From a virus: a stretch of 43,488 bases of DNA. Under the pieces are notes generated by a model. It had not been told where the DNA came from. It saw only the letters and a list, made by a program, of their open reading frames with translations, and searched no databases. Positions 10,827 through 43,488 of this stretch are shown piece after piece. Position numbers and translations under genes: made by a program. How positions within the stretch are numbered: position 1 is the stretch's first letter; every line of letters begins with the position of its first letter. The stretch lies in the IMG/VR virus record IMGVR_UViG_3300037422_000481; one strand, written 5' to 3'.

Positions 10827-10832
10827 TGCTGC

Positions 10833-11468: not shown

Positions 11469-12052
11469 AGCCCACGCTCGAGCAGGTCGTCGCGCACGCG
11501 CTCGAGGAAGCGCCGACTGCGCTTGCGCCCGTGCCCGGGCACGGCCCATGGATGATCCCCAGGGACGCGCAGTCCGAGCTCGTGAGCTGGATCGCCGCGC
11601 GCGTGCTCGCCTACTACCTGGCGACCGCCGGCATCCCCGCGAAGATCGAGCTGAGCGAAGGTCTGTGCCTGCTCGAGCTCGCACACCAGCGCGCGCTCAT
11701 GCTGGGCGCGGTGCGCAGCCACGGGGGCCTCTACATCTTCCAGGCGCCGATCGTGCCCCCTGTCAAGTTCGTGGCCGTGCTCGCCTTCTTCGAGCCGGGC
11801 GGCGTCCTGTGGGCCTTGGCGACCGCGGAGAACACGCGAGCGATGGCCACCATCGTCGGCGGCAGGCGCCTGCTCATTCCAGATGTCGAGAGCGCGGAGG
11901 GAGGGCTGCAGACCACGCTCGAGCTGGTCGAAGGGCTGCGCGTCCTCAGCGCGGCCCCCAAAGAAGAAGGCCGGGCCCCGGGGAGTCGGGCGTCTCCCAA
12001 GGAACCCGGCCAGGCATCTCCACCTGCGAAGGTGGATGCTACTTCGGCTTGA
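11465..12052 (+). CDS. Hypothetical protein, 195 aa.
   Basis: GTG 11465 overlaps the TGA of the previous gene (GTGA). Track ORF. Its 3' end overlaps the convergent VRR-NUC gene by 14 nt. Confidence 0.6.
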   Translation: MKPTLEQVVAHALEEAPTALAPVPGHGPWMIPRDAQSELVSWIAARVLAYYLATAGIPAKIELSEGLCLLELAHQRALMLGAVRSHGGLYIFQAPIVPPVKFVAVLAFFEPGGVLWALATAENTRAMATIVGGRRLLIPDVESAEGGLQTTLELVEGLRVLSAAPKEEGRAPGSRASPKEPGQASPPAKVDATSA

Positions 12053-12974: not shown

Positions 12975-14143
12975 GAGGGGTTCATCCTCTGCGTACTAGC
13001 CGGAGAGCTCGGCACTCCATCGTCCTCGCCAGCGAAGAGCTCGCCCGTCTTCGTGCGGCGCAGGAACTCGCGCGTCTGTCCGCGGGTCATGACGTCTCGT
13101 TTCGCGAGGCCGATCTCCTCGCGGTACTTGTTGAGCTGGCGCTGCGACGCGGAGCCGGCGGCGATCGCCGCAGCCAGCTCGGTGAGCAGCGAGTGCGTCA
13201 CCGGCTCATCGTCGTCGTCGGCCTTCTCCGCCGGAGGCGTCGGCGCGGGGGCCGTGCCGGCGGTGCTCGCGGCCGCCACCTTGTCGAGGCCTTCCTTCGC
13301 GCTGCCGGCCTTCGGCACGCGGAAGTATTCCTCGCGGTTCGAGTTGCCATCCTTCAAGGACTGCGCGATCGCCAAGAGGTCCGCGAGTTCGCGCTCGTCG
13401 ACCTGGGCGATGTCGTGCTCGAGGAAGGCGTCGATCATATCCTTCGTGACGGCGAACTCCTGGAACACGAAGAGCAGCTTCTTGCAGGTCGCGTCGCGGT
13501 CGAGCGCGAGCGATTGCTTGGCGCCCTCCGCTCGCGTCTTGGAGGCTACCCGCAAGGCGTCCTCGATCACGTCAGGCGGTATCAGCTTGAGGATCGAGTT
13601 GCGCTCGCAGAACGCGCCCCACTTCGCCGTGGTCTCGCGCAGCTCGCGCTCGTCGTCCGTGACGATCCACTCCGTCACGCCCGTCTTCGCGTTTTCGCGC
13701 TGGAACTTTTTCAAGAAGCGGTGCTCGGTCTCGGTGTAGGCGTTGGTCTGCACGTCGTGCGCCCAGCCGCAGAGCTGGCGCGCCTCGGGCGTGTCCTCGA
13801 CGATGCGGATGCCGGAACGGATGTTGCCCCAGTACTGCGCGATCAGCCGCGCAAGCTGCACGCTGGGTCCAGAGATCTGGGTCGTCTTGCCCTTGCTTCG
13901 GCGCGGGAAGGAGTACGTCGCTTCCTCGGCCACGCCCCGCCGGCCGCACGCCGTCATGATGGACGTGTGAGCGCGGAGCTCGTCGCGCGGGCGCGCCATC
14001 GCGGCGAGGATGGAGGCCTTGATCAGGCCTTCCTCGCGCGCGATCGCGGCCGCGGTGAGCGGTGTGAGCCCTTCGCCGTTGCGCTGGACCGTGGCCGGCA
14101 CGAAGGAGGGCGCCGGCACGACGTCGTCGATGTCGGAGCTCAC
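12971..14143 (-). CDS. Putative recombination (single-strand annealing) protein, 390 aa. The function is inferred mainly from position next to the exonuclease.
   Basis: GTG 14143 is preceded by AAGGAG with an 8-nt spacer and overlaps the exonuclease TGA (GTGA). Internal start of track ORF 12971..14569. The core ...ATYSFPRRSKGKTTQISGPSVQLARLIAQYWGNIR... could not be placed by eye in RecT, Red-beta or Erf. Confidence 0.4.
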   Translation of the reverse strand: MSSDIDDVVPAPSFVPATVQRNGEGLTPLTAAAIAREEGLIKASILAAMARPRDELRAHTSIMTACGRRGVAEEATYSFPRRSKGKTTQISGPSVQLARLIAQYWGNIRSGIRIVEDTPEARQLCGWAHDVQTNAYTETEHRFLKKFQRENAKTGVTEWIVTDDERELRETTAKWGAFCERNSILKLIPPDVIEDALRVASKTRAEGAKQSLALDRDATCKKLLFVFQEFAVTKDMIDAFLEHDIAQVDERELADLLAIAQSLKDGNSNREEYFRVPKAGSAKEGLDKVAAASTAGTAPAPTPPAEKADDDDEPVTHSLLTELAAAIAAGSASQRQLNKYREEIGLAKRDVMTRGQTREFLRRTKTGELFAGEDDGVPSSPASTQRMNPS

Positions 14144-15009
14144 GAGGTTTGCTCCTTCGTCATCGACTCGAGGAGGGCCCCGAGTTGCGCCTGGTCGGGC
14201 GTGTACCAGGTGGGCAAGCCGATGTCGGTGGGCAAGCCGGAGAGGTCGGGCCACTGACCGCTCTTCTGGCAGGCCGCGAAGACCTGCAGCAGGAAGTCGA
14301 TCTCGAGGCGCCCGAGGTTGATGGCTTCCTGCGTCAGGCGGTACACCGCCGCGTCGTACGGAGCGCAGCGCTCGTAGGCCACGCAGTAGTAGGCCGGCAG
14401 ACGCCCTTCGTGCGTGGCCGCGTAGCCCCACGAGTACCAGGCCGCCTGCAGGTGCAGCTTCTGGCTCGCGATCGTGCGCGCGAACGAGAAGAGCGAGCAG
14501 TCCTCGGTGGTCTTGAGGTCGCAGATGACGTCGGGCCCCGGCAACAGGATGTCGAGGCGCCCCTTGCACGGCGTGCCGTCCGGGAGCTGCCAGGCGAGCG
14601 TGACCTCACGCATCGCGCCCGGGTGCTCGAGCAGGAGCTTCACGTAGGGCTTGGCCCGGATGGACGCGGCGATGCCGCGGATCGCTGCGCCTTGGTTCGC
14701 GGTGAGACACACCGCGTCGGGATGTTCAGCCTCGAAGACCTTCCATTCCTTGAGGCGACGGTCCGAGACGGGTCCGATCGCGTGCGCCGCCTCGAAGCGC
14801 GCCGGCTCGAGGATGGCGCAGTGCACCGCCTTGCCGACGAGCTGCGCGTCGGTCTCTTCGTCGTCCGGATGGTCCTTCCTGTAGCGGTAGCGCGCGGGGC
14901 TTCGCGAGAGCTCGACGAGGTCGCTGCGCGAGAGCGCGTCCGTCTGCAGGTACTGAGCCCAGCCGATGTCCTTGTGAACGCCTGGAGAGAGAGAGGTCAC
15001 GGTTTCCAT
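14140..15009 (-). CDS. PD-(D/E)xK exonuclease (RecB/RecE-C-terminal/YqaJ-like), 289 aa.
   Basis: GRLDILLPGPDVICDLKTT (D...DxK) and QKLHLQAAWY (QxxxY) are typical of RecB-family phage exonucleases. ATG 15009 is preceded by AAGGAA with an 8-nt spacer. Confidence 0.7.
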   Translation of the reverse strand: METVTSLSPGVHKDIGWAQYLQTDALSRSDLVELSRSPARYRYRKDHPDDEETDAQLVGKAVHCAILEPARFEAAHAIGPVSDRRLKEWKVFEAEHPDAVCLTANQGAAIRGIAASIRAKPYVKLLLEHPGAMREVTLAWQLPDGTPCKGRLDILLPGPDVICDLKTTEDCSLFSFARTIASQKLHLQAAWYSWGYAATHEGRLPAYYCVAYERCAPYDAAVYRLTQEAINLGRLEIDFLLQVFAACQKSGQWPDLSGLPTDIGLPTWYTPDQAQLGALLESMTKEQTS

Positions 15010-16269: not shown

Positions 16270-16595
16270 GTGTTCCTTTCTTCGTGGGGTTTGACCTGCC
16301 GCCCGGGCGCCTCGGTGCGCTCCCACATGCGGGCGATGCGCACGTGTTCCTCCGCCAGCACCAGAACGTTGTCGAGTTTGAGGCCTTGCTGGGTCATCCG
16401 CTCCGTGAACAGCGTCTCGAGTCTGCTCACGAGAGCCGGCGTTGCCTCCTGGGCCGCGGCCATGCGGTCCATCGCCTGCGTGATCCGTCGCAGAAAGAAT
16501 CCGATCGTGACGATGCCGCTGATCACGACCGCCATCAGCAGCCAAGCGACGACGCCGACGTCCTTGACGAGGTCAGGGGACGGAAACTGTTCCAC
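16266..16595 (-). CDS. Single-pass membrane protein, about 109 aa.
   Basis: One hydrophobic helix (VGVVAWLLMAVVISGIVTIGFFL) is followed by a charged helical region. GTG 16595 is the assumed start. It overlaps the giant ORF end by 23 nt. Confidence 0.55.
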   Translation of the reverse strand: MEQFPSPDLVKDVGVVAWLLMAVVISGIVTIGFFLRRITQAMDRMAAAQEATPALVSRLETLFTERMTQQGLKLDNVLVLAEEHVRIARMWERTEAPGRQVKPHEERNT

Positions 16596-19500
16596 GCGCG
16601 GTCGTGTCTGCGCTGAGGCGCCGGATCGCCGAGATTCTCCGGAGCAGCTCACGCGCGTGCTCGCTCTCCGAGCTGCGCAGCTGCGGTCCGAGGAAGGAAC
16701 CCGAGGGACGATAGGGCTCGTAGCGGTTCCGGATCACCTGCGCGATCGTGTCGGCCGAGAGTGCTCCGCGCAAGCTGCGCATGATCTCGCTGTCCGTGAG
16801 GCCGAGCCCTCGCGCGGCGCTGAGGGCCGCCTGGAAGTCCTCCCACAGGCGGCTCCTGGCGCGCTCGGTCGCTCCGTACGCCTCGACCAGGTCCTCGTCA
16901 CTCACGCGGCCGCGCTTGCCGGCCACGCGCGAGAGGATCGAGGTCGCGTCCGCGCTCTGCCGTGCAAACTCGCGCGCCAGCTGGTGCAGGGCCTGGCGCG
17001 TGTCGACCGAGCTCATGCGCACGCCCGAGAGCATCGCGAGCGTCTCCACCCCCGGATCGTAGACGCGGCCGTACTGCGTCACCTCGCCCTGCAGGCCGCG
17101 CGCGATGCGCCGCAGGCTCGTCGCGGTGCCCGGCTCGACCGCCTTGCCGAGGTGCGCCAGGACGTCGCGCGTTTGGGCAAGCGTGGAGTCCTCGGGGTCG
17201 TAGATCTGGTTGTCGAACTCGTCGCGGTTGTACCAGAGGGCGTCGATCACGGCCTTGGTCGCGATCTCCTCGGAGAAGAACGGCGCCAGCACGTTGGCGG
17301 CGCCGCGGCGCGCAGCGTCCTCCCAGTCGTCGCCGCGCAGGAAGGCCATCAGCGGCTTCTTGAGGTAGCTGTGCGGGTCGAGGTAGCTGATGTCGACGTA
17401 GGTGCGCGCGCCTTCGCTGTTCTCCGCCAGCCACAGGAGATCCGAGTCACGCGACCACGGCGGAAGGAACTTGCGCGCCGCCTCGTCGTCGTCGTCGGTC
17501 ATGCCCACGAGGTAGCGCGCCAGCGCTGCGAGTCCCGCTGTCCAGCCGGCGGCGAGGAAGGTGCCGGCGAGCCGCCGTGCGCCGATCACGCGCACACCGC
17601 TCGTCTGGCTCCCGAGCTCGCTGCGGATCTGCATGATCGTGTTCTTCGCCGTGCGCATCACCTCCCACGGGAAGCTCACGAAGGTGCCGACCAGCGGGAA
17701 CTGGCGCAGCTGGCGCACCGCGCGCGGCACCATCGAGTAAGTCGGGAAGACGTTGCGCACGATCTCGGCGGTCTTGCGCTCGAGCTCGTCGGCGCTGAGG
17801 CGCGGCTCGGCCTTGCGGTAGGCCGCCTTCTCGTTCTCCCACGCGAAGAGCTTCCAGAAGTCGTCCTGCGCGCCGTACACGCGCGAGAAGAAGTGGAGGG
17901 CACGCACGCCCTTCGCCTTGGCGCTGTCCGGATCGAACATGGACGCATCGGCGACGTGCACGTCCTCGAGCAGCGCGCGCAACTCCTGGCCGTGTGGGCT
18001 CTCGTGGATCACGCCGAGCTCGACTGCGCGGCGCAGGTAGGCGCGCCAAGCCGGCCGCGAGAGCGCGTGGAACTCCGCGGCCATGCCCTTGAGCGCCGGA
18101 GCGAACTTGCCGGCGCGGAAGTAGCCTTGCGCCAGGGCGAAGCCGGTGTTGCCGAGGTTGTTCCGGACCGTGGTCATGACCGAGAGCACGGTCTTCGAGT
18201 ATTTCGCGATCCCGTTGATTGCGACCCACCAGCGCCACGCCGTGTCCAGGCTCGCCGGCTCCATCTGCTTGAAGGCGTCGCGGATCTCCGGCGTGGTGTA
18301 GAGCCCGTTCAGCGGCGCGTAGACGGCCGAGGCCTCACCCGCGATGCGCGCCTTCGCCTCGGGCGGGATGGCCGGATCGTCGCCCTCCCACAGGTAACGC
18401 CCGAGACCATCGGCACGTACGGCCGCCAGGAACTCGTGGTTCCCGATCGTGAAGGCCATCTTCGAGACCGAGCGCATGTAGTTGACGCGCGCGTCCTTGT
18501 ACTCGCCCCACAGCGCGCGGATCTCGACCGGGACGTTCTTCCTGCGCTTCATGAAGGAGAGATCCTTCGTCCCAAGCTTCGCCTGGGCCATGACGCGCAC
18601 CGGCCCGTCGGCGGCCTTGCCCTCGAAGAGCAGCCGCTCGATCACGGCCTCGAGCGCGCGCGGCTGCTGGCGCGCCTGCAGCACGCCGATCTCGCGCTGC
18701 ACGCGCGCCATGCGCCGCTGCGTCGAGCCAAGCCGCGCCAGGTCCTTCTTGGTGGGCTTGGACACGGCCTCGAGCGCAGCCTCGAGGCCGGAGAGCGCGC
18801 CCAGCAGTCGGCCAGCTTGGAACTCGCGACGGGAGTACTCCTGCGCGATGAAGGCCTTCGCCGCGTTGCGCGCTTGCACGGGAACCTTCTCGGCCCACTG
18901 CGGGTCGTCGAAGGCCCGGTAGCTGCGCGTCGCGTAGAGCTCGAGGTTCTTCGTGATCACCGGCACCAGGCGCTGGTCGACGACGCCGCTCGAGATCAGG
19001 CGCTGCGAGAGCTCCTTGATGTGGTTGCGCGCGGCCTGCACGGCGTTGCCTAGCTTGACTGGGAGCGCGCCGCGCGCGGTCGGGTCCTTGAGGGCGTCGT
19101 CGACCAGCGCGACCTGGGCGGGCGTCAGCTTCTTGCCAAAGGTCGCACGCAGCGCCGCGACCAGGTCGTGCTCGATCTCCTCGGCGCGCCGCATGTGCGC
19201 GTTGATCCAGCCATCGCGCCGGATCTTCGAGGCGAAGGGCCCCTCGGGCAGTCCTGCGGCCGCGGTGAAGTTGCGGCGCCAGCCTCTACCGAGCGAGAAG
19301 AGCACTGGAGCGCCGCCGCCTTCGCTGAACTCGTTCGCGATCTGTTGCTCGATGGGCAGGTTCTCTTCGGCAATGAAGGACGCTTGCCCACCCGCGAGAT
19401 CACGCGCTCGAGCCGCGAGACCCTCAAGCCGTGCCGCCACCCGCGTTGGCTTCTCCTTCAGCACGGAGCGCAAGATCGCGACGGCGGTCGCGTCGCTCTT

Positions 19501-22500
19501 CCATCCCACGTCGATACCAGGCATGACGGCTTGCCGCAGAACGTCAGCCAGCGGCTGATTCGTCTGCACGACCTCGGCGGCTCCCTGAGCCACGTGAAGC
19601 ATCGTGTCCGCGAACCCGGGCGCGCGCGCCTTCAACGTGACGAGCGCCGGAAGGGCCCGCAGTAAGACGTTCCGAGTCGCTGGTGGCGTCTCCACGAGCG
19701 TCCGCACGTCGCCGATCACGCTGCCGAGCAGTGCGTCCTCGATGACCTGCTTCCCGCTCTGAGTCGGGATGCCGCGCCGTGGATCGAAGAGCTCGGCCAT
19801 GTCCCGTTGTCCCAGCGCACCGGCCCGCACCATCGTCCGCGCGATGTCTCTCGCCTTGCCCGCGTCGCCGAGCGCGTCACGCAACGTGCCTTCGCCGATC
19901 ACGCCCGCAATCGAGCTCGCGACCTCGGCCGTGATTTTCGATCCGCGCGACACGGCTTCGGTCGTAGCGCCCTTCCCGGTCGTAAGCGACTCGTTCAGGA
20001 CGCGCGAGAGCTCGCCAGGTGCGCCTTCGCGGCCTGGCTCGACGATGCGCACCAGAACCGGATCGGCGATCCCGAGCGGTTCGATGCCGAAGCGCTTGGC
20101 CGCCTTGACCATGCCCGCGCGAATCTCTTCCGCTTGCGGACCGGCTCGTGAGTAGGCGAGCTGCATCCCCATCGTGCGCGCATTGCCCCCGAGCACGACG
20201 CCCTTGCTCGTCACGATCGGAGGACCGTCGACCGGCGAGGGTGTGTCAGTCGTGAGCAGCGACACCTTGGGAGCGTTGGCGATCGCTCGCACTGTCTCCC
20301 GCATCGGCGCGCCCTCAACGGGATCGTCGTAGGGGCGCTCGTTCAGGTCGCCGGCCGGGTTGCGGACGAACCCGCGTCGCACGTCATGGCTCGGCACGAG
20401 CTCGCTGGCTGCCACGATGGCATAGGTCACGGGCAGGGTACGACCCTCGGCGAGTTCGACCGTCGATGCCTCCCCGGAGCGAACGAGGATTTCCAGTTCT
20501 TGTCCAGGCTGGATCCGGCTACCCTTGAGGGGTAGTCTTCCCCCGACGATGCCGCTTCCTGATTCCTTTCCTGCTGGAACAACCTTCTGGGATTGCAGTG
20601 ACGTTCCCGTGGTGGCCACTCCAGGGCTGGTCTGCACGGCCTTCGATGTGCCGGACGGGCGGCGTTTCCCCTGCACGACGGTCGATAGCGACGGCGTGCC
20701 GATCTCGGAGGCGGCCTTCCGCGCCATGGTGCCCAAGGCCATCGCTCGACTGGCCGCGTTCCAAGCCGAGTCGTAGACCGCGCGCTGCTTGGCCTCGAGC
20801 TGGTCGATGCGGCGCTGCTGCTCACCCGTACGTGGGCCTCGAGCGCGCTGCAACCGCTGCATCTCTTCGTACTCGAGATGGAGGCGCTCCTTCGCCTCGA
20901 TCATTCTAGGCACGTTGATCTGCACCTCGGCGTGCAGGGCACCCAGGTCGAAGTGCATGAGTATGTCGCGGTAGCCGGTCGTCACGATCGGCGCCGTGAA
21001 GTCGCGGAACTTCACCGGCTCACCGAACCGTCTGCGCAACTCGACGACGGCCGCTTCGGCCTGCTCGAGCGTGTCCACCACGACGGTGCCGCGCAGGATG
21101 TCGCGCACTCGCGTCGCGTCGCCTTGATAGTCGTGCAGCGCTTTCACCAGCGCCCGAGCCATGCTCTTCACGCCAGGCAATAACGGCTTGTGGTGCGAGC
21201 CCACGGCCTTCGCCACCGCGCGAATGGAGCGGCCGAAAGAGGGCTCGCGCCTTCGCGCCGCAGCCAAGAGCTTGACCAACGTCCGCCGCGCCCGCAGTTC
21301 GACGGCGCGCAGATCCAGTTTCCGCGGCTTGCGCTCCTTGGGCGGCGCAGCGGCGAGGCGTTCACGCTTCTTCTTGCCGCGCTGCCGGAATCCGACCCGG
21401 CGCGGGCGCGCCTCCAGCCCTTCGAGCTCGAGCTCCATACGCGAAGGCTGTATGCGCCGCGTGACCTCCAGGCGCGGGGGCTTCGGCAGCTTCGCGAGGC
21501 GGCGCTCGAGCACGCGGACTCGAGCCTCCGCGCCTGAGCGACCACGGAGTGCGCGGATCTCGGCCTCGAGCTTCCCGCGCTTCTGGCGCACGCGCTTCGC
21601 CTGCGGGCCGGTGAGAGCCTGCTGCGAGGGGATCCAAGTTGGTTGAGGGATGCCCCGTTGCGCTTCGCGCGCGGCCGGAACGGCACGCTGGCTGGGCTCT
21701 ACAGCCCTCTGCCGACGGGGAAGTTCTCCACGGACAGGAATCCGGCGTCCCTCTTCCGGCCATGCGGCGCTCGTTCCTGCCGGTGCGGCAGGGCCGGCCG
21801 CAATGGCAGCCGCTGCCGGCCTTCTCGAGGGACGCCGGTAGCCCTCGATCGTGGCGAAGGCCTGCTGCACGAGCCGCGCGATCTCTGGGATGCGCGCCGG
21901 CTCGATGACGATCTCCTGGTCGGTCTCGGCGAGTTCGTCCCTGAGCTCTCGCAGCGCCTTCTCCGTCGACGTCTCCAGGTGCACGCCCGCGCGGCGCACC
22001 ATCCGGATCAGCGCGTCGATCATGCGCCGCAGGAGGCCGGGGCGCTCCGCAGCTTTGCGGAAGCGCTCGCCCTCGAAGAGGAGCCCGCCGCGCTCTTCCA
22101 GGTAGTTCGAGACCGCCTCTTCCGCCTGGCGCTCTGGGCTCAAGCCCTGGGCCTTGTAGCGTTCCCTGACGTCGAGCTCGGTCGCCGCGAAGCCCTCCGG
22201 ATCGACCTCCTTCAGATCGACGGCGAGCTGGTTCGCGGTGTCGACGGCCGTGTCGCCAGCCATGTCCTCGCGCACGACCTGGGCGAGGTGGTGGTAGGCC
22301 TCGTGGAGGAGCAGCCGCCGCTCGAGCACCTTGTCCGCGGCCGCGACGTCGAAGACCAGCGCGCGCTGCTCGGCCACGTAGCCGGCAGGGGCCGCTCCGC
22401 GATCGCCCTCTTCTTCCTCCGTCGGTTCGTCGGTGTACTCGACGAAGACCGCTTCAGCGCCCAGGCGGCGCGCGCGCTCGGCCACGCGAGCCTGAGCGGC

Positions 22501-23772
22501 GCTCCGGGGCTCCACCACGGCGCCCGTGCGCCCCTGGCGGCCTAGGAAGGTTGCAGCGGCGCGGCGGCCACCTGCGGACGCCGGCGCGACGTAGGGGATA
22601 TCGTCCGGTGCAGAGCCCGGTGATGCATCGGGCACAGCCACGTCGCCTTCAGCGGCTGCGAATAGTCCGCGTGGTGTGCCTCGACCTTCGAGCTCTTGCA
22701 CACGGCGCAGGGCAGCTTCTTCACCAAGCCCCTGCGCACGTAGACGCGCAAGTAGCTGCGCGCGATCGCCCTCCGGCGCGTCTCGCCCACTAACGGGTGT
22801 GCCTTCCTCCAGACCCTTGTCTTCGCGTTCTGACACGGACGGCAGTACCCGCCGACGCCCTTCGGCGTCCGCGCGCAGTTCGGGCACAGACCGTCCTTCC
22901 GCCTCATGTTGTGGAACAGTACCGCCCCCAACCTCCGCCGTCGAGGCCAGGGCCGAGAGGAGTCCGCCAGCGACCGCCGGCACCACCAGGGCCTCCCCGC
23001 TGGCCCAGCGCTGCATGAGTTCTTCCAGGGGTTTTCTTGCCTGGTCATGGCGCGAGATGTAGCGCGCCGTGACGTCGGCCAGCACCTGCTGGAAGTTCTC
23101 CTGCAGCACCTCTTCACCGGCCTCGAGCGCGGCCGTGCGGATGAAGCGCGAGAGCATGCGCCCGCTCGCCTTGTCGGCGAGCCCGAGCACGCGCCGCGCT
23201 TGGCCGGCGATCGGGACCGCCTCGCTCGCACCCTCGATCACGCCCAAGAGCGCCGCGAGGAGAGCCGCGTCCTGTGCTTCCTCGGACTCCGGGTCCTCGA
23301 AGGAAGCCAGCGCCTCCTTGTAGCGCGGCCCGACGGTCGCCAGCACGCCCGAGGTGCCAGCCATGAGCGGCGCCGCTACTGGCGCGCTCGCGCCGAGACC
23401 CACGAGGCCCGCCGTGCCGAGCGCGGTCGCGCCCAGGAATCCAAGGCCACTGCCGACGCCCTCGACCGTCTTCTCGAAGAGCGACACGGGCGCGGCGCCA
23501 GCACGCTCGCGTTGTTGCCCGAGCCAGCGCGCGGCGTCACCCATGCGCGGGATGCCCAGTACCTCGCCGGTCTCGGCCGCGCCCTGCACGACCCCGAGCG
23601 CGCCCCGCGCGAGACCTCCGACGATCGTGGGCGGGACGCGCTTGATCTTGGGGCCGAAGAGCCTCCGCAGCTCTTCCTCGAGCGGATCCTCTTCCACCTG
23701 CGCAGCAGGAGCATGCGCGCCGCTGAACAACGTGCGCAGCTCCTGCTCGAGCGGATCCTCCGCGTCCCTCAT
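16573..23772 (-). CDS. Formal 2,399-codon ORF for a giant multidomain (polyvalent-type) putative internal-virion or ejected protein. It may not be one continuous gene (see the nested HNH gene).
   Basis: ATG 23772 (MRDAEDPLEQELR...) overlaps the TGA of the upstream gene (ATGA). The first 398 codons of track ORF 16573..24966 are shadow of gene 23769-25247. Contents:
- Gly/Ala-rich hydrophobic segments (about 23340-23480).
- HEAYH (22291-22305).
- An RSH-like segment (20857-21180).
- A ParB-like segment (20090-20439).
- About 1,100 unassigned C-terminal residues.
Third-position G/C collapses in this frame across about 22545-22925. Confidence 0.55.
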   Translation of the reverse strand: MRDAEDPLEQELRTLFSGAHAPAAQVEEDPLEEELRRLFGPKIKRVPPTIVGGLARGALGVVQGAAETGEVLGIPRMGDAARWLGQQRERAGAAPVSLFEKTVEGVGSGLGFLGATALGTAGLVGLGASAPVAAPLMAGTSGVLATVGPRYKEALASFEDPESEEAQDAALLAALLGVIEGASEAVPIAGQARRVLGLADKASGRMLSRFIRTAALEAGEEVLQENFQQVLADVTARYISRHDQARKPLEELMQRWASGEALVVPAVAGGLLSALASTAEVGGGTVPQHEAEGRSVPELRADAEGRRRVLPSVSEREDKGLEEGTPVSGRDAPEGDRAQLLARLRAQGLGEEAALRRVQELEGRGTPRGLFAAAEGDVAVPDASPGSAPDDIPYVAPASAGGRRAAATFLGRQGRTGAVVEPRSAAQARVAERARRLGAEAVFVEYTDEPTEEEEGDRGAAPAGYVAEQRALVFDVAAADKVLERRLLLHEAYHHLAQVVREDMAGDTAVDTANQLAVDLKEVDPEGFAATELDVRERYKAQGLSPERQAEEAVSNYLEERGGLLFEGERFRKAAERPGLLRRMIDALIRMVRRAGVHLETSTEKALRELRDELAETDQEIVIEPARIPEIARLVQQAFATIEGYRRPSRRPAAAAIAAGPAAPAGTSAAWPEEGRRIPVRGELPRRQRAVEPSQRAVPAAREAQRGIPQPTWIPSQQALTGPQAKRVRQKRGKLEAEIRALRGRSGAEARVRVLERRLAKLPKPPRLEVTRRIQPSRMELELEGLEARPRRVGFRQRGKKKRERLAAAPPKERKPRKLDLRAVELRARRTLVKLLAAARRREPSFGRSIRAVAKAVGSHHKPLLPGVKSMARALVKALHDYQGDATRVRDILRGTVVVDTLEQAEAAVVELRRRFGEPVKFRDFTAPIVTTGYRDILMHFDLGALHAEVQINVPRMIEAKERLHLEYEEMQRLQRARGPRTGEQQRRIDQLEAKQRAVYDSAWNAASRAMALGTMARKAASEIGTPSLSTVVQGKRRPSGTSKAVQTSPGVATTGTSLQSQKVVPAGKESGSGIVGGRLPLKGSRIQPGQELEILVRSGEASTVELAEGRTLPVTYAIVAASELVPSHDVRRGFVRNPAGDLNERPYDDPVEGAPMRETVRAIANAPKVSLLTTDTPSPVDGPPIVTSKGVVLGGNARTMGMQLAYSRAGPQAEEIRAGMVKAAKRFGIEPLGIADPVLVRIVEPGREGAPGELSRVLNESLTTGKGATTEAVSRGSKITAEVASSIAGVIGEGTLRDALGDAGKARDIARTMVRAGALGQRDMAELFDPRRGIPTQSGKQVIEDALLGSVIGDVRTLVETPPATRNVLLRALPALVTLKARAPGFADTMLHVAQGAAEVVQTNQPLADVLRQAVMPGIDVGWKSDATAVAILRSVLKEKPTRVAARLEGLAARARDLAGGQASFIAEENLPIEQQIANEFSEGGGAPVLFSLGRGWRRNFTAAAGLPEGPFASKIRRDGWINAHMRRAEEIEHDLVAALRATFGKKLTPAQVALVDDALKDPTARGALPVKLGNAVQAARNHIKELSQRLISSGVVDQRLVPVITKNLELYATRSYRAFDDPQWAEKVPVQARNAAKAFIAQEYSRREFQAGRLLGALSGLEAALEAVSKPTKKDLARLGSTQRRMARVQREIGVLQARQQPRALEAVIERLLFEGKAADGPVRVMAQAKLGTKDLSFMKRRKNVPVEIRALWGEYKDARVNYMRSVSKMAFTIGNHEFLAAVRADGLGRYLWEGDDPAIPPEAKARIAGEASAVYAPLNGLYTTPEIRDAFKQMEPASLDTAWRWWVAINGIAKYSKTVLSVMTTVRNNLGNTGFALAQGYFRAGKFAPALKGMAAEFHALSRPAWRAYLRRAVELGVIHESPHGQELRALLEDVHVADASMFDPDSAKAKGVRALHFFSRVYGAQDDFWKLFAWENEKAAYRKAEPRLSADELERKTAEIVRNVFPTYSMVPRAVRQLRQFPLVGTFVSFPWEVMRTAKNTIMQIRSELGSQTSGVRVIGARRLAGTFLAAGWTAGLAALARYLVGMTDDDDEAARKFLPPWSRDSDLLWLAENSEGARTYVDISYLDPHSYLKKPLMAFLRGDDWEDAARRGAANVLAPFFSEEIATKAVIDALWYNRDEFDNQIYDPEDSTLAQTRDVLAHLGKAVEPGTATSLRRIARGLQGEVTQYGRVYDPGVETLAMLSGVRMSSVDTRQALHQLAREFARQSADATSILSRVAGKRGRVSDEDLVEAYGATERARSRLWEDFQAALSAARGLGLTDSEIMRSLRGALSADTIAQVIRNRYEPYRPSGSFLGPQLRSSESEHARELLRRISAIRRLSADTTARGTVSVP
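20090..20439 (-). other. ParB-N-terminal-like (DdrB-ParB type) segment inside the giant ORF.
   Basis: YAIVAASELVPSHD...NERPYDD...GPPIVTSKGVVLGGNARTMGMQLAY matches the ParB-like layout (...SHD...PR.R...GxPIV...xxGNxRxxA) seen in polyvalent proteins of phages and plasmids. By-eye assignment. Confidence 0.45.
20857..21180 (-). other. RelA/SpoT-homologue (RSH) synthetase-like nucleotidyltransferase segment inside the giant ORF.
   Basis: The segment reads GVKSMARALVKAL...VRDILRGTVVV...TTGYRDILMHF...AEVQINVPRMIEAKERLHLEYEE. It parallels the RSH synthetase motifs in the same order: RxKxxxSxxxK, DxxGxRxI, GYxSxH, EhQIRT, HxxYK. Confidence 0.55.
22291..22305 (-). other. HExxH zinc-metallopeptidase-type motif inside the giant ORF (LLLHEAYHHLAQ).
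   Basis: The codons cac gag gcc tac cac were read on the minus strand. The preceding ~70 residues (AEAVFVEYTD...GYVAEQRALVFDV) resemble the start of a zincin-like domain. This is motif-level evidence only. Confidence 0.45.
22542..22907 (-). CDS. HNH-type endonuclease-like zinc-finger protein, 121 aa. It is encoded out of frame inside the giant ORF and may be a mobile homing-endonuclease cassette.
   Basis: MRRKDGLCPNCARTPKGVGGYCRPCQ...KKLPCAVCKSSKVEAHHADYSQPLKATWLCPMHHRALH matches the common phage HNH pattern C-x2-C...(E)AHH-x-DY-x-x-PL-x-x-x-WLC-x-x-x-H-x-x-x-H. This is the C-terminal part of track ORF 22542..23231. Third codon positions are almost all G/C in this frame, but mixed in the giant-ORF frame over the same bases. 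Confidence 0.7.
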   Translation of the reverse strand: MRRKDGLCPNCARTPKGVGGYCRPCQNAKTRVWRKAHPLVGETRRRAIARSYLRVYVRRGLVKKLPCAVCKSSKVEAHHADYSQPLKATWLCPMHHRALHRTISPTSRRRPQVAAAPLQPS

Positions 23773-39258: not shown

Positions 39259-39771
39259 CTAGTCTTCGCTGGGCCGCAGCGCTTGGAAGCCCGACGCCAG
39301 CATCATCGACGGGCGCCGGAAGTACACGTGGATCCGGTAGTCGTCGCCGCCCGTAGCGGGGATGAGCAAGCCCCACGGCTGGCTGATCACGATCCCGCGC
39401 GAGAACATGATCGGCGTCGCCGGCAGATTCTGGAGCGTCGGAGAGACCGCGCGGTGGTCCGTCGCGACCGGCATGTTGGCGAGTCCGCTGAGGGCCGCGC
39501 CGGTCTCGTCGACGAACGAGAAGACGCGCGGGTCGGTCGCCGGGAAGACGATGATCTGGTAGCCCTCGAGCACGGTGAACGGCTCGAGCCGGATGATGCT
39601 CGCCTCCTTGTCGGGCGTGTAGAGTCCGCCGCCCGAGGGGAAGATCGGTACACCCGTGGCGCCGGCCACGGAGGTGAGCACGTCCATGAAGTCGGCTGCG
39701 ACGTCGGCTTGCCCAACGGCCGTGGTCCTTTCATCGGACGGTTCGGGACCGTCCCCTGCTTCACGCGCCAT
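39259..39771 (-). CDS. Hypothetical protein, 170 aa, between terL and the portal.
   Basis: Track ORF. ATG 39771 overlaps the end of terL by 11 nt. Confidence 0.6.
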   Translation of the reverse strand: MAREAGDGPEPSDERTTAVGQADVAADFMDVLTSVAGATGVPIFPSGGGLYTPDKEASIIRLEPFTVLEGYQIIVFPATDPRVFSFVDETGAALSGLANMPVATDHRAVSPTLQNLPATPIMFSRGIVISQPWGLLIPATGGDDYRIHVYFRRPSMMLASGFQALRPSED

Positions 39772-41326
39772 CGTCGAACCTCACTTTGTCGTGCTCCAGG
39801 ATCGCTCCAATGCTGTCCTCAGGGACCGTTCTCACCTGCTCCCGCGGCGGAGTCAAGTCCTTGCCGAAGGCCCAGACCGCAGCGTACTGAGTCGCGTCGC
39901 ACCCGTGGTCGGGACAGGCCCGGTCCGGCTCCTCCTTGACGGGCTTGCCATCCTTCCACTGCGCCCACACGTAGCCGGGGATCTCGTCCTCGGTGCAGTT
40001 GGGCTTGTGCTCCTCGGCGAGCGCCTGATCGGGAGACTCGAGCGCGTCCCAGCACAGGTAGAGCCGCGGCGGGGATTCGGCGAGCTCAACGCCTTGGCCT
40101 TCTCCGGGCGCGAGCCCGTAGCGCACCGTGTCGATGCGCACCTGCTTGTCTTGCACGCCTCCGATCGCCAGGTGCGGTGTGTCGCGCGCGCCAACCTCGA
40201 TCAGCCGGCGATTCAGGAACTCGATCAGGTCCGGACGCGACGGGTCACAGACAACAGCCGCGAGCCCATAGCGCTTGTAGAACCGCGCCACGTGCTCCGC
40301 CCAGGCGTCCAGCTGCAACGCTCGTCTGTAGATTTCGTGGATCCGGTAGATGCGCTCGCACTTGCCGACCACGCCCCACACCTGGAGACAGCCGGGTGCG
40401 CGGTGGCCCCAGTCGAAGCTCGCGAAGTACCAGTCGAAGGTCAGGCGCCCCCGCTCGTCGCGTCGATGGCCGTCCTTGAGCGCGGTCCCGTCGACGCCCG
40501 TCGCATCGCGGTAGACCATGTGCTTGTCGCGATCGAAGATCTCCCACACCTGGCCTTCGGCTCCCACCCACTCGCCGCGCAGGAGACGGCCGCGCTGCGG
40601 ACCCGTGAGGGTCTCGAGCTTCGCCATGTACTTCGCGCCGTCGAGCGTCAGCTCGCCCGAGACCTGGTCGTACAGCACCGGGTTGTCGGTGTGGCGCGAG
40701 AGCAGGCGACGCATCTGCATCTCGCCTTCGCGCGGCTCGCCGAGCAACCGCACCAGCTCGGGCGTGCGCTCGAGTCGTCGCTTCGCGCGCCGGTTGAGCC
40801 AGTGCTGCTCGTGGTCCGGGTTCGTATCGGCGATGATCTGGTTCCAGGGCAGGTGCCCGTTCCGGCAGCGCGTGAACAGCGCTTGCCAGTCCTCCTCCGA
40901 GAGCTCGCGCGCCTCGAGCGCGACGATGATGTCGTACTCCGTCGACATGATCCGGCTCGACTTGTCCATCCCGCCGAGGACCACGCGCGAGCGCCCGCGA
41001 TAGGTAACGCCGTCGACCGTGTTCATCCCCCACGGGAACTCGTAGGCGTGCCTCTGCTCGGCCGAGCCGCCCCTCCGCATGCAGGCGTCGTCGGGGAGTA
41101 CGCGCTGCTCCCACGTCACGCAGCCCGACTCCGTGAGCGACGCGCGCGTCTTGCGCACGAGCAGGATGCGCACCCCAGGGAACGTGACGCAGACCCAGTA
41201 GACGTACTCAAGGACCCCGCGCGTCTTGCCGCAGCCGGCCGGTCCCTCAAGCAGGATCTCCTGCTCGCGCGCGAAGAAGAGATCTCGGATGGCCCCGCAA
41301 GGCCGGAAGCTGACGGCACTTACCAC
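39761..41326 (-). CDS. terL: Terminase large subunit, 521 aa.
   Basis: Walker A is GPAGCGKT. Walker B-like is YDIIVALEA. The C-terminal RNase-H-like nuclease acidic motifs are ASFDWGH and PDHGCDATQYA. The GTG 41326 start is uncertain because GAGG is immediately adjacent. Confidence 0.9.
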   Translation of the reverse strand: MVSAVSFRPCGAIRDLFFAREQEILLEGPAGCGKTRGVLEYVYWVCVTFPGVRILLVRKTRASLTESGCVTWEQRVLPDDACMRRGGSAEQRHAYEFPWGMNTVDGVTYRGRSRVVLGGMDKSSRIMSTEYDIIVALEARELSEEDWQALFTRCRNGHLPWNQIIADTNPDHEQHWLNRRAKRRLERTPELVRLLGEPREGEMQMRRLLSRHTDNPVLYDQVSGELTLDGAKYMAKLETLTGPQRGRLLRGEWVGAEGQVWEIFDRDKHMVYRDATGVDGTALKDGHRRDERGRLTFDWYFASFDWGHRAPGCLQVWGVVGKCERIYRIHEIYRRALQLDAWAEHVARFYKRYGLAAVVCDPSRPDLIEFLNRRLIEVGARDTPHLAIGGVQDKQVRIDTVRYGLAPGEGQGVELAESPPRLYLCWDALESPDQALAEEHKPNCTEDEIPGYVWAQWKDGKPVKEEPDRACPDHGCDATQYAAVWAFGKDLTPPREQVRTVPEDSIGAILEHDKVRFDDGA

Positions 41327-41420
41327 CCTCTATTGGAAATTCTCTGGAAACTCGGCGCGACGTGGCTAGGCTGTGTCTGCACAAGGCGACGTGTTCGCCT
41401 ACCAACGGGAGACTATACCG
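41327..41420. promoter_or_regulatory. Divergent intergenic region between terL (minus) and the plus-strand island. Presumed promoter region.
   Basis: This is one of the most AT-rich stretches I noticed in the window (tattggaaattctctggaaactc). TGGAAA is repeated with 11-bp spacing. GGGAGA lies 8 nt before ATG 41421. I could not identify a confident -35/-10 pair. Confidence 0.4.
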
Positions 41421-41654
41421 ATGAGCAAAGAAGCGTACATGACAGTCATCACCTACCAACATGCGCCGCACTACGGCGGGCGCGGTATCGCGCTCTGCGC
41501 GTCCTGTGCGACCGAGGACACGCGGACGGAGGCGTGTGATCTACCGTCGCTCGGGCCGGTCTCGCACGGGCTCCACGCGGGGCAGTGCCAGTGCCCATGC
41601 CACGCCACGCGCGCCAGCGCCGTGCGCGTGGAAGGCGAGGAGGCGCAGCCGTGA
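41421..41654 (+). CDS. Cys/His-rich small protein, 77 aa. First gene of the plus-strand island.
   Basis: ATG 41421 follows GGGAGA with an 8-nt spacer. The Cys/His-rich segment is ...CASC...C...HGLHAGQCQCPCH.... Its C-terminus EGEEAQP and stop lie in the same 27-nt junction motif that ends both pentapeptide-repeat genes. Confidence 0.6.
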   Translation: MSKEAYMTVITYQHAPHYGGRGIALCASCATEDTRTEACDLPSLGPVSHGLHAGQCQCPCHATRASAVRVEGEEAQP

Positions 41655-42568
41655 GCGCCCTCGGCCCGATCCCCGCGCACCTGGCCGCGTACCCCTGGTA
41701 TGCGCCGCACCAGGCGTACCTGCTCTCGGTAAGCTCCGCTGCGTATGATCCAGGGGGGGCCACTCCGCAGCGGGCCGTGCTCGACCGTGCGAGTCTCGAC
41801 GGTGCGAGTCTCGACGGTGCGATCCTCGACGGTGCGAGTCTCGACGGTGCGAGTCTCGTCGGTGCGAGTCTCGACGGTGCGAGTCTCGTCGGTGCGCGTC
41901 TCGTCGGTGCGCGTCTCGACGGTGCGAGTCTCGTCGGTGCGATCCTCGACCGTGCGAGTCTCGTCGGTGCGCGTCTCGTCGGTGCGAGTCTCGTCGGTGC
42001 GCGTCTCGTCGGTGCGATCCTCGTCGGTGCGCGTCTCGTCGGTGCGAGTCTCGACCGTGCGCGTCTCGACGGTGCGAGTCTCGACCGTGCGCGTCTCGAC
42101 GGTGCGCGTCTCGTCGGTGCGCGTCTCGTCGGTGCGAGTCTCGACCGTGCGCGTCTCGTCGGTGCGAGTCTCGACCGTGCGCGTCTCGACGGTGCGCGTC
42201 TCGACGGTGCGAGTCTCGACCGTGCGAGTCTCGACCGTGCGAGTCTCGACCGTGCGAGTCTCGACGGTGCGATCCTCGACCGTGCGAGTCTCGTCGGTGC
42301 GACGATGCCCGACGGCCGCGTGTGGGAGGACTACCGCGCCGACCACTACGCCGGCATCTGCGACACGCCTGAGGTCCGCGCGCGCGCCGATGCCGCTTGG
42401 GACCGCCACACGTGGAAAGACTGCCCGTTGCGCGCGGCGTTGGGCCTCGATTCGGCGGCGGCTGCTGGGGACAAGGCGCTCCTCGTCGCTTGCTGGGTGG
42501 CCTGCTACGACGCGGACCTCCTGCCGGACCCGGTCGCGACCGCCAGCGGCGAGGAGGCGCAGCCGTGA
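41651..42568 (+). CDS. Pentapeptide-repeat protein 1, 305 aa. The core is 35 x A-[S/R/I]-L-[D/V]-[G/R] and is roughly charge-neutral.
   Basis: GTG 41651 overlaps the upstream TGA (GTGA), with GGAGG 8 nt upstream. It has 35 consecutive 5-residue units (41774-42298). These are flanked by a 41-aa N-terminal segment and an ~89-aa Cys-containing C-terminal domain. Confidence 0.85.
   Translation: MSALGPIPAHLAAYPWYAPHQAYLLSVSSAAYDPGGATPQRAVLDRASLDGASLDGAILDGASLDGASLVGASLDGASLVGARLVGARLDGASLVGAILDRASLVGARLVGASLVGARLVGAILVGARLVGASLDRARLDGASLDRARLDGARLVGARLVGASLDRARLVGASLDRARLDGARLDGASLDRASLDRASLDRASLDGAILDRASLVGATMPDGRVWEDYRADHYAGICDTPEVRARADAAWDRHTWKDCPLRAALGLDSAAAAGDKALLVACWVACYDADLLPDPVATASGEEAQP
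41774..42298 (+). repeat. Array of 35 x 15-nt units (consensus gcgagtctcgacggt) encoding the repeat core of protein 1.
   Basis: Read directly. After the first unit, every unit is gcg-[agt/cgt/atc]-ctc-[gac/gtc]-[ggt/cgt]. Confidence 0.95.
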
Positions 42569-43482
42569 GCGCCCTCGGCCCGATCCCCGCGCACCTGGCC
42601 GCGTACCCCTGGTATGCGCCGCACCAGGCGTACCTGCTCTCGGTAAGCTCCGCTGCGTATGATCCAGGGGGGGCCACTCCGCAGCGGGCCGTGCTCGACC
42701 GTGCGAGTCTCGACGGTGCGAGTCTCGACGGTGCGATCCTCGACGGTGCGATCCTCGACGGTGCGAGTCTCGACGGTGCGAGTCTCGACGGTGCGAGTCT
42801 CGACCGTGCGAGTCTCGACGGTGCGATCCTCGACGGTGCGAGTCTCGACGGTGCGAGTCTCGACCGTGCGAGTCTCGACGGTGCGAGTCTCGTCGGTGCG
42901 AGTCTCGTCGGTGCGAGTCTCGACGGTGCGAGTCTCGACCGTGCGAGTCTCGTCGGTGCGAGTCTCGACCGTGCGAGTCTCGACGGTGCGATCCTCGACG
43001 GTGCGAGTCTCGACGGTGCGAGTCTCGACGGTGCGAGTCTCGACGGTGCGAGTCTCGACGGTGCGAGTCTCGTCGGTGCGAGTCTCGACGGTGCGATCCT
43101 CGACGGTGCGAGTCTCGACGGTGCGAGTCTCGACGGTGCGAGTCTCGACGGTGCGAGTCTCGTCGGTGCGATCCTCGACGGTGCGATCCTCGACGGTGCG
43201 AGTCTCGACCGTGCGACGATGCCCGACGGCCGCGTGTGGGAGGACTACCGCGCCGACCACTACGCCGGCATCTGCGACACGCCTGAGGTCCGCGCGCGCG
43301 CCGATGCCGCTTGGGACCGCCACACGTGGGAAGACTGCCCGTTGCGCGCGGCGTTGGGCCTCGATTCGGCGGCGGCTGCTGGGGACAAGGCGCTCCTCGT
43401 CGCTTGCTGGGTGGCCTGCTACGACGCGGACCTCCTGCCGGACCCGGTCGCGACCGCCAGCGGCGAGGAGGCGCAGCCGTGA
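42565..43482 (+). CDS. Pentapeptide-repeat protein 2, 305 aa. The core is 35 units, mostly ASLDG, and is strongly acidic.
   Basis: It has the same start/stop architecture as copy 1, exactly 914 bp downstream. The flanking N- and C-terminal segments are essentially identical at DNA level; I saw one difference (K versus E in HTW[K/E]DCP). The core is at 42688-43212. Confidence 0.85.
   Translation: MSALGPIPAHLAAYPWYAPHQAYLLSVSSAAYDPGGATPQRAVLDRASLDGASLDGAILDGAILDGASLDGASLDGASLDRASLDGAILDGASLDGASLDRASLDGASLVGASLVGASLDGASLDRASLVGASLDRASLDGAILDGASLDGASLDGASLDGASLDGASLVGASLDGAILDGASLDGASLDGASLDGASLVGAILDGAILDGASLDRATMPDGRVWEDYRADHYAGICDTPEVRARADAAWDRHTWEDCPLRAALGLDSAAAAGDKALLVACWVACYDADLLPDPVATASGEEAQP
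42688..43212 (+). repeat. Array of 35 x 15-nt units encoding the repeat core of protein 2.
   Basis: It has the same unit grammar as 41774-42298, but I saw no cgt in the second codon. Confidence 0.95.
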
Positions 43483-43488
43483 GCGCCC
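43362..43488. repeat. Terminal direct repeat, right copy. It implies a circular, circularly permuted or terminally redundant genome, or an assembler k-mer overlap.
   Basis: Identical to 1-127 and to 42448-42574. Confidence 0.95.

Follow-up and report, generated by a model that had tools for sequence, protein, structure and literature searches.

The viral record IMGVR_UViG_3300037422_000481, whose source is an uncultured high-GC tailed phage, carries between its terminase genes terS and terL an apparently moron-like operon built around a tandem pair of 305-aa pentapeptide-repeat proteins (PRPs), here called PRP1 and PRP2. We analysed the whole stretch of DNA, hereafter the window (43,488 nt, 68% G+C). 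The two copies are predicted to be one polyanionic rod (PRP2) and one near-neutral, Arg/Val-rich rod (PRP1), with divergence that falls almost entirely on outward-facing residues of the repeat. Both end in a helical domain, the head, and to judge from homology searches the PRPs that bear it form a rare subfamily, so far found only in virus and metagenome data. By analogy, we tentatively read the pair as decoys for host enzymes.

Tandem pentapeptide-repeat genes with divergent surfaces

The PRP1 and PRP2 genes are 918 nt each and form a 914-nt tandem repeat, with the following features on the window; g1 and g4 are the genes on either side of the pair.

41651-42568, plus strand: PRP1, 305-aa pentapeptide-repeat protein (PF00805, E=5.9e-41)
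42565-43482, plus strand: PRP2, 305-aa pentapeptide-repeat protein (PF00805, E=6.4e-41)
41774-42298, plus strand: PRP1 array of 35 head-to-tail 15-nt units (Tandem Repeats Finder, period 15, score 1003)
42688-43212, plus strand: PRP2 array of 35 units of 15 nt (unit table)
42299-42565, plus strand: PRP1 C-terminal helical domain, 89 aa (subfamily signature)
43213-43479, plus strand: PRP2 C-terminal helical domain, 89 aa (HMMER, alignment, AlphaFold)
41634-41660, plus strand: junction repeat J, copy 1, between g1 and PRP1 (exact match)
42548-42574, plus strand: junction repeat J, copy 2, between PRP1 and PRP2 (exact match)
43462-43488 (= window 101-127), plus strand: junction repeat J, copy 3, between PRP2 and g4 (exact match)

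Each protein consists of a 41-aa N-terminal segment (motif PIPAHLAAYPWYAPHQA; cap motif PIPAHL..YPWYAPHQA), a solenoid of 35 uninterrupted, in-register pentapeptides (about 8.75 coils) encoded by almost identical 15-nt units, and the 89-aa C-terminal domain. The junction repeat J (GGCGAGGAGGCGCAGCCGTGAGCGCCC, 27 nt) holds the ribosome-binding site GGAGG, the last codons GEEAQP and the GTGA stop/start, and the last 7 codons and stop of g1 lie inside copy 1. Since the body of the PRP gene is bracketed by these 27-nt direct repeats, it could be duplicated or deleted by recombination.

The units take the form GCG-(AGT/ATC/CGT)-CTC-(GAC/GTC)-(GGT/CGT). Over all 70 units, the Ala (GCG) and Leu (CTC) codons were constant, save for GCC in two cap units (AVLDR), and the only variable nucleotide positions were 4-6, 11 and 13, together with position 3 in the same two cap units; the variable codons were AGT/ATC/CGT (Ser/Ile/Arg), GAC/GTC (Asp/Val) and GGT/CGT (Gly/Arg). 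PRP1 and PRP2 differ at 48 nucleotides, 47 of which lie within the 525-nt arrays. Every one of the 39 differing codons changes the amino acid, with 0 synonymous swaps, and 38 of the 39 fall at the three repeat positions that face outward. In a pentapeptide, residues 1 and 3 face the core and the remaining ones point outward (PMC10886550), so that every variable site of the PRP arrays is expected to be surface-exposed.

The outcome is a large difference in charge. PRP1 is rich in ARLVG, ARLDG and ASLDR units, including twelve units with Arg at position 2 that do not occur in PRP2, and has a net charge of -7 (solenoid +1), whereas PRP2 consists mostly of ASLDG and AILDG units and has a net charge of -34 (solenoid -24) and an isoelectric point (pI) of 4.05. 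Such wholly non-synonymous (39/39), surface-directed divergence suggests selection on the surface of the rod itself. Every variant state recurs within the arrays, and the simplest mechanism would therefore be gene conversion or unequal exchange among units, acting together with selection on the surface. The G+C content at third codon positions (GC3) was 0.62 in the array units, with their T-ending codons, versus 0.84-0.90 in the flanking domains; the T-ending codons fit a recent expansion from one unit.

Among phage records, 174 were matched as pentapeptide-repeat proteins, including those of Ralstonia, Microcystis and Mycobacterium phages and gp020 of Caulobacter phage BL94. The annotated phage PRPs of the consensus type resemble the window pair in their near-identical 15-nt units, in which the inward-facing Ala/Leu codons are constant and variation is outward only. 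On this comparison of sequences, outward-only change over constant core codons looks like a general mode of evolution of phage consensus-type PRPs. These proteins are likewise phage-borne and uncharacterised, and theirs are often genes of replication modules, but they are single-copy, lie on the same strand as their neighbours and have 7 to 23 units as against 35 here; BL94 gp020 is also without the MPDGR...CP...[WF]VA.[YF]D head. In BL94 gp020 (L002 4023-4362) and at a further locus (L010 4788-5031), synonymous variation was almost nil (one CTC among 23 Leu codons).

Both proteins belong to the pentapeptide-repeat superfamily, with PF00805 scores of 138 bits (PRP1) and 137.9 bits (PRP2) against a cut-off of 20.2. 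The model of PRP2 that AlphaFold built from the single sequence had one strand per 5 residues from 43 to 218, with block means of the predicted local distance difference test (pLDDT) of >90 for residues 51-200 and 81-82 for residues 41-50 and 201-210. When this model was compared with the PDB by Foldseek, it matched HetL, designed/synthetic beta1 solenoids, Np275/276, QnrB1, MfpA, AlbG and EfsQnr at a probability of 1.0, and it superposed on beta1_ex1 with a root-mean-square deviation of 0.9 A over 177 columns. The modelling thus predicts that the PRPs are genuine right-handed quadrilateral beta-solenoids, with a likeness to MfpA, Qnr, AlbG and McbG in fold (Foldseek probability 1.0) and in length, at about 8-9 coils.

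The location between terS and terL, together with the fact that the genes had not been called by the Joint Genome Institute (JGI), led us to consider whether the 15-nt array might be a non-coding DNA signal, such as a packaging site or a CRISPR-like array. This was rejected, as the array lies in a frame with strong PRP profile matches; moreover, the N- and C-terminal parts that flank it have GC3 values of 0.84 and 0.90, typical of coding sequence, and have homologues. The public JGI annotation holds only 82-aa C-terminal fragments of both PRPs (43234-43482 and 42320-42568; P0001). The arrays were presumably masked or skipped there, so that such proteins would be under-represented in protein databases. 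In an exact-sequence look-up, neither PRP2 nor the fragment P0001 was on record.

The C-terminal head and its subfamily

The heads of both PRPs carry the motif MPDGRxWExY..D[HP]LAG[IL]C..PE..RA.AAW..H.W..CP...A.G....[WF]VA.[YF]D..LL, in which G6, W34, C42-P43 and D71 are invariant across the head alignment. AlphaFold with the alignment gave a confident four-helix model (pLDDT 88.6; predicted template-modelling score, pTM, 0.78). No significant match to the domain was found in the PDB, by profile or by Foldseek, and none in BFVD or Pfam. In this respect the window proteins depart from the MfpA/Qnr type: Qnr/MfpA-type PRPs typically dimerise tail-to-tail via short C-terminal helices (PMC10886550), whereas the PRPs described here have, in place of a short dimerising helix, an 80-aa helical domain, along with a distinct N-terminal motif.

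A HMMER search with the 89-aa domain against 1.84 billion representatives returned 56 clusters at E<=1e-3, 42 of them at E<=1e-10, and the closest clusters were 60-66% identical to the PRP heads. The domain was at or near the C-terminus in nearly all matches and followed pentapeptide repeats in the members inspected, in proteins mostly of 120-314 aa. A word-indexed search with the N- and C-terminal parts retrieved four other proteins only. Pattern scans for the head, for which a 10-sequence alignment was used because the full 32-sequence alignment was too diverse, located 5 IMG/VR loci and 40 metagenome loci, mostly on JGI contigs. The same kind of pattern-based scan, which distant copies may escape, confirmed no match among 185,579 species-representative genomes of bacteria and archaea.

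The other subfamily members have about 2 to 23 units, and the 35 in the window are the longest array seen; the median solenoid charge of the subfamily is -0.17 per unit. No other subfamily locus had a second PRP copy. The neighbours of the subfamily genes (17 loci, 43 proteins scanned) were mainly replication and recombination genes, of the types VapE-like, ResIII/Helicase_C, Prim-Pol, D5_N, DUF5906, AAA_24, PD-(D/E)XK, methylase and one topoisomerase IA fragment. On the low-GC metagenome contig L045 (63-731 and 1031-1258), a type IA topoisomerase fragment (Topoisom_bac and Zn_ribbon_Top1) appears to sit immediately upstream of a PRP of the subfamily, the matching neighbour being assigned from its sequence.

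Among the other subfamily members, P0143 and P0151 have the same N-terminal motif as the window proteins, and P0129 has the same ASLDR/ARLDG/ARLVG unit types. The motif PIPAHLAA[YH].WYAPHQAW is also present on P0003, P0004 and P0005 with other C-terminal domains, and P0005 has about two pentapeptides only, plus a different Cys-containing domain. Since the N-terminal motif stands on proteins with other C-termini, the cap motif, the solenoid and the head would seem to behave as exchangeable modules.

The operon and the slot between terS and terL

Nearly all genes of the window are on the minus strand, and the plus strand is used only in 10027-12052 and in the PRP block. The remaining features of the block and its surroundings are as follows, with the ends of the window joined on the circular map.

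41327-41420, no strand assigned: divergent intergenic region upstream of the block, between terL (minus) and g1 (plus), the presumed cassette promoter region and possibly that of terL too
41421-41654, plus strand: g1, 77-aa Cys/His-rich protein (CxxC ... CQCPCH; open reading frame (ORF), GC3 0.83; called in the Logan assembly)
118-393, plus strand: g4, 91-aa basic protein (GC3 0.90; called in the Logan assembly)
390-914, plus strand: g5, ORF with GTG start at 390 and a CxxC-x12-CxxC zinc-ribbon motif at 450-509 (GC3 0.72)
553-598, plus strand: intrinsic terminator, 13-bp stem and U-run (fold; core also by pattern scan)
618-884, minus strand: p88, conserved Zn-ribbon protein, last gene of the terS-side minus block, converging on the cassette
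881-1984, minus strand: p367, conserved protein between terS and p88, with homologues in the relatives
1887-2414, minus strand: terS, small terminase subunit (phrog_4102, E=1e-16)
39761-41326, minus strand: terL, large terminase subunit (Pfam Terminase_3/6N), transcribed away from the cassette
1-127 = 43362-43488, no strand assigned: terminal assembly overlap (exact match)

Five relatives with terL 50-57% identical to that of the window (L004, L005, L006, L007 and L009) were compared by tblastn. All five keep the gene orders p175-terS-p367-p88 and terL-portal, and between p88 and terL they carry unrelated small genes, all on the same strand as the flanks: genes of 66 and 72 aa in L004, of 103, 52, 89 and 87 aa in L009, of 121, 128 and 98 aa in L006, and of 192 aa in L007. 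No opposite-strand gene and no homologue of g1, PRP, g4 or g5 was found in the slot of these five relatives. Unrelated small genes within conserved flanks indicate that the slot is hypervariable or accessory, which is the comparative signature of a moron-like slot. The comparison supports the assignment of the block as a putative independently terminated, moron-like accessory operon in the hypervariable terS-p367-p88/terL slot. The 72-aa gene of L004 (9767-9985, NCBI GCA_964568755.1) bears PF24729 Acb2_Tad1_hairpin, and a 72-aa gene of the same type is found in L005 (1339-1557), in both cases immediately upstream of terL. Acb2/Tad1 is a family of the anti-CBASS/anti-Thoeris sponge fold, and the presence of such a gene in a relative's slot marks the slot as a place in which to seek counter-defence genes in this lineage.

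Two of four defining moron features were found, namely absence from syntenic relatives and a terminator of its own. The block resembles tailed-phage morons in being extra DNA compared with the relatives, with its own terminator, a relatively AT-rich upstream region and an independent orientation. Unlike them, it is not simply added between adjacent core genes but stands in a variable slot where the relatives have other small genes. Prophage expression is part of the original moron concept.

The first-pass annotation of the window had described a moron of this kind, a five-gene opposite-strand cassette with its own AT-rich upstream region and a strong intrinsic terminator. The opposite-strand block between the terS-side genes and terL is confirmed on the circular map, as are the two tandem 305-aa PRPs, by PF00805 and the beta-solenoid model, and the terminator, which folds into a 13-bp G+C stem (553-585) followed by UUUCUUUUUCUC, with the U-run on the plus strand only. 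The moron architecture is borne out by the terminator and by the absence from five syntenic relatives, and the promoter is putative. The 94-nt upstream region is indeed low in GC (56% vs 68% for the genome), with one of the genome's three 80-nt windows of lowest GC at 41383-41462; a scan for consensus promoters, which need not be those of the host, matched no sigma-70-like promoter in 41327-41420, and no repeated motif common to this region and other intergenic regions was found. Two genes do separate terS from terL on the terS side, although at 367 aa and 88 aa they are not the small genes that had been described. The survey of relatives that had been proposed as a check, with the block missing from the slot in 5/5, indicates that the block is not a conserved core module.

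The gene count needs correction at the 3' end of the block: g1, PRP1, PRP2 and g4 stand, but the fifth gene, g5, is without a usable stop. GTGA stop/start overlaps join all four junctions (g1/PRP1, PRP1/PRP2, PRP2/g4 and g4/g5), as had been noted, but the GGAGG said to precede each start is found at three of them, where it ends 7 nt before GTG; at g4/g5 there is GGAG with a 5-nt spacer. The end of g5 had been placed at about 510, yet the TAA at 511-513 belongs to another frame, and that of g5 is open to 914, so that the ORF traverses the terminator and runs antisense to the whole of the convergent p88 (618-884). An independent gene call on the Logan assembly of the same sequence omitted g5. 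As annotated g5 is doubtful, being gene-like only in the CxxC-x12-CxxC part at 450-509, and its open 3' end may reflect an indel error, a non-stop transcript or no gene at all.

Profile searches of the cassette proteins, also suggested earlier, identified PF00805 in both PRPs and no significant domain in g1, g4 or g5. g1 matched nothing in Pfam, PHROG, NCBIfam, PADLOC or the PDB, and searches gave no homologue of it. A single concatenated query of g1, g4 and g5 gave no homologue at E<=0.01, in a search from which self-matches were also missing, so that short proteins may be under-represented there. By tblastn, none of the three was found in the 45 PRP loci or in seven comparison loci, comprising the five distinct relatives, the same-phage contig L003 and the PRP locus L001. 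Residues 11-41 of g4 (pI 10.45) weakly match the Sso7d/Sac7d/Sul7d type in three libraries, all below threshold (Pfam 7kD_DNA_binding, E=0.008; NCBIfam Sul7d, E=0.008; PDB Sac7d/affitin, E=0.06-0.2). Possibly g4 has a small DNA-binding fold of the Sso7d/Sac7d kind, which we regard as a lead and not as a finding.

Positions 1-127 of the window are identical to 43362-43488. This terminal repeat is the k=127 overlap of a circular assembly and not additional DNA, so that the true circle is 43,361 bp. The overlap falls within the repeated PRP C-terminal segment; circularisation and PRP copy number therefore hinge on how the assembly graph was resolved. A second, independently made assembly of the same phage (Logan SRR13020435, 41,566 nt) is identical to the window over the 3.2-3.3 kb compared beside each contig end, and it ends exactly at the g1/PRP and PRP/g4 junctions. 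These ends confirm the outer junctions; the junction between the two PRPs, their copy number and the order of units within the arrays are not confirmed by them.

As for the flanking genes, terS and terL are non-adjacent in the window phage and in all five relatives, with p367 and p88 in between. The two are joined by an ATGA overlap, and p88 homologues in 5/5 relatives are 45-53% identical. p367 has a Cys-rich C-terminus and p88 a CxxC-x19-CxxC motif, and no known domain was matched in either; both may be accessory factors of packaging. Directly after the terminator comes a 20-nt sequence repeated perfectly in tandem (CTCAGCGCCCGCCGAGCCCG x2, window 597-636), which lies over the p88 stop codon. 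Among isolated phages, the best match of terL is that of Streptomyces phage Dagobah (35% identity), and a terL search of IMG/VR gave no close relative. No tRNAs were found in the window. Elsewhere on the minus strand are a C-5 cytosine DNA methylase (6686-8125, E=1.6e-37), a DUF3799 PD-(D/E)XK-like protein (14140-15009, E=1.1e-25) and a 2399-aa ORF (16573-23772) whose sole recognisable domain is a ddrB-like ParB (E=6e-16). The product of this ORF is a giant multidomain protein, and its 2805-aa counterpart in L004 has ddrB-ParB and a weak RadC match. The sole other plus-strand block includes a 161-aa protein with a Cpn10-like segment (10027-10512).

Proposed function and rival explanations

Our preferred reading, drawn by analogy and plausible to us though somewhat short of probable, is that the PRPs are decoys for host DNA-handling or defence enzymes, with PRP2 as a DNA mimic. 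The PRP gene would have been duplicated in tandem, and the copies would have diverged since then, or via gene conversion among units, at three solvent-exposed residues. The operon would be transcribed on its own, against the flanking minus-strand genes, and we guess that it might be expressed early in infection; since the terminator has its U-run on the plus strand only, terS-side minus transcripts could, speculatively, read antisense through the cassette and shut it off late. The rigid solenoids would bind DNA-handling proteins of the host as decoys. PRP2 would do this through charges arranged like those of duplex DNA, in the manner of MfpA/Qnr-type PRPs and of mimics of the Ocr/ArdA type; candidate targets are topoisomerases and nuclease-type defence enzymes. 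The conserved head would serve for dimerisation or docking, and the duplicated, re-charged copy would broaden or shift the target range.

Several known systems offer partial parallels. Some inhibitors of gyrase are encoded by phages, and PRPs bind gyrase by mimicking DNA (PMC10886550). Besides the predicted fold, the window proteins share with MfpA, Qnr, AlbG and McbG carriage on mobile elements, and the anionic surface of PRP2 is compatible with DNA mimicry. They differ from the gyrase-binding PRPs, some of which bear one or two protruding solenoid loops (PMC10886550), in that their 35 in-register units have no break and in that PRP1 is not acidic. With T7 Ocr, ArdA and T4 Arn they have in common a protein that is strongly acidic by net charge and predicted to be elongated (PRP2; PRP1 is near-neutral) and an accessory position in a phage, but there is no sequence or fold kinship and no PADLOC or PHROG functional match; every PHROG match of the cassette proteins is labelled 'unknown function'. 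Anti-defence loci of phages are described as undergoing segmental amplification (PMC13096335), and this gene accordion resembles the present case in an accessory gene tandem-duplicated between short direct repeats with amino-acid-changing divergence, and differs in that here no homing endonuclease is implicated and there are two copies only, from one assembly. A bolder extension, which we consider unlikely to hold as a whole, is that the locus works as such an accordion: the J-bracketed PRP gene could be amplified or lost, its solvent-exposed surface being quickly rewritten from acidic to neutral or basic while the core codons stay fixed, and head-bearing PRPs would then be new programmable counter-defence or topoisomerase-modulating decoys of phages, with PRP2 as DNA mimic, PRP1 as retargeted variant and the head as docking or dimerisation module.

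A number of observations weigh against the decoy reading. The DNA-mimic idea, already raised in the first-pass annotation, fits the charge of PRP2 but not that of PRP1, which is near-neutral. The analogy to MfpA, Qnr and AlbG made there survives in the predicted beta-helix, a structural check that the confident PRP2 solenoid model passes, and not in family membership or in the unrelated C-terminal domain. The NCBIfam MfpA model gave 45.2 and 44.1 bits against a cut-off of 360, the Qnr model gave 30.4 and 27.8 bits against 240, and all Qnr subfamilies were far below their cut-offs; membership in the Qnr/MfpA families was therefore rejected on these curated equivalog cut-offs. The best sequence matches were consensus-type PRPs with protein-protein roles (PipB2, HetL and Np275/276), not gyrase-binding ones, and no cassette protein matched a PADLOC defence or anti-defence model. 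Within the subfamily, solenoid length and charge are unconserved, which indicates that the conserved feature is the C-terminal head and not a DNA-like rod of set length. When McbG and QnrB were assayed against BREX, neither was inhibitory (PMC7261183), which argues that PRP DNA mimics are not general anti-defence agents. Finally, a single short-read assembly is the source of both the PRP-PRP junction and the array haplotypes.

The main rival explanation is that the proteins are accessory factors of a replication module, in which the head binds a phage or host replisome or recombination component, the solenoid serves as a rigid spacer of free length, and the gene was relocated and duplicated in this phage. 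Only the head is conserved (with G6, W34, C42, P43 and D71 invariant), units range from about 2 to 35 with unconserved charge, and members lie among primase, helicase, AAA_24, PD-(D/E)XK and ParB-like genes on the same strand; a different consensus-type PRP, BL94 gp020, adjoins DNA polymerase I. At the window, by contrast, the genes are outside the replication block in a separate opposite-strand operon, the accessory slot and the relatives without the block argue against a core replication role, and the 39/39 non-synonymous divergence suggests selection on the rod surface. This explanation thus suits the family-wide data better than the decoy reading does, and the window locus less well, and we consider it rather unlikely, if deserving of serious weight. 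A lysogenic-conversion moron, expressed from a prophage for the benefit of the host through superinfection exclusion or through protection of gyrase from toxins or antibiotics in the manner of Qnr, McbG and AlbG, would agree with the opposite orientation, the terminator and the absence from relatives, and known PRPs do shield gyrase from poisons (PMC10886550; PMC7261183). Set against this, no integrase domain was present among about 30 ORFs scanned with Pfam (a scan that a repressor could have escaped), the Qnr and MfpA scores fell short, and the C-terminal domain had no match in the 185,579 bacterial and archaeal genomes, meaning that the family was not seen in prophages of sequenced species. 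We judge this account improbable.

Two further alternatives concern how the pair arose. The PRP gene may be real while the two copies, the 35 units, their order and the haplotypes are products of short-read assembly or strain mixing. The 127-nt overlap of the contig ends lies inside the repeated C-terminal segment, the copies share identical N- and C-flanks of 204 and 158 nt, both exceeding k, the second assembly breaks exactly at the outer junctions, many contigs of the family end within arrays, and JGI gene calling gave 82-aa fragments only. Yet the array interiors are made of unique 127-mers, the very existence of the contig requires a tandem junction from C-terminus through J to N-terminus in the reads, and the outer junctions came out the same with an independent assembler. 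Arrays of near-perfect 15-nt units that share this codon pattern are also present in the completely sequenced isolate Caulobacter phage BL94 (gp020), and these, together with the arrays in L010, show that such arrays are real biology and not only an effect of assembly; an artefact in the details of the pair has a small but real chance of being correct. Programmed hypervariation of the diversity-generating retroelement (DGR) type, in which the two copies would be template and variable region, would account for differences confined to few nucleotide positions and for the 22 of 48 differing sites at which A is present in PRP2 and absent from PRP1. Adenine mutagenesis leaves the remaining 26 differences, which are G/C or T-containing, unexplained, a Pfam scan of the ORFs above about 230 aa gave no reverse transcriptase, and every variant state is also present elsewhere in the same array, as gene conversion or unequal exchange would yield. 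With no reverse transcriptase among the large ORFs and adenine at only 22/48 differences, DGR-type diversification was rejected, and we give it hardly any credence.

The literature that we searched did not describe the C-terminal head, its restriction to virus and metagenome data, or a charge-divergent tandem pair, all of which may be new; nor did full-text searching find a functional study of a phage-encoded PRP. The head domain is a marker of the subfamily and a handle for pull-downs and structural work, and the two paralogues, with identical ends and differing only in surface charge, constitute a natural paired test of DNA-like charge. Should the decoy idea prove true, consensus-type PRPs could be ranked with Ocr, ArdA and the anti-CRISPR DNA mimics as a strategy widespread among phages; otherwise, the locus would still be a clear case of repeat-driven evolution of a protein surface.

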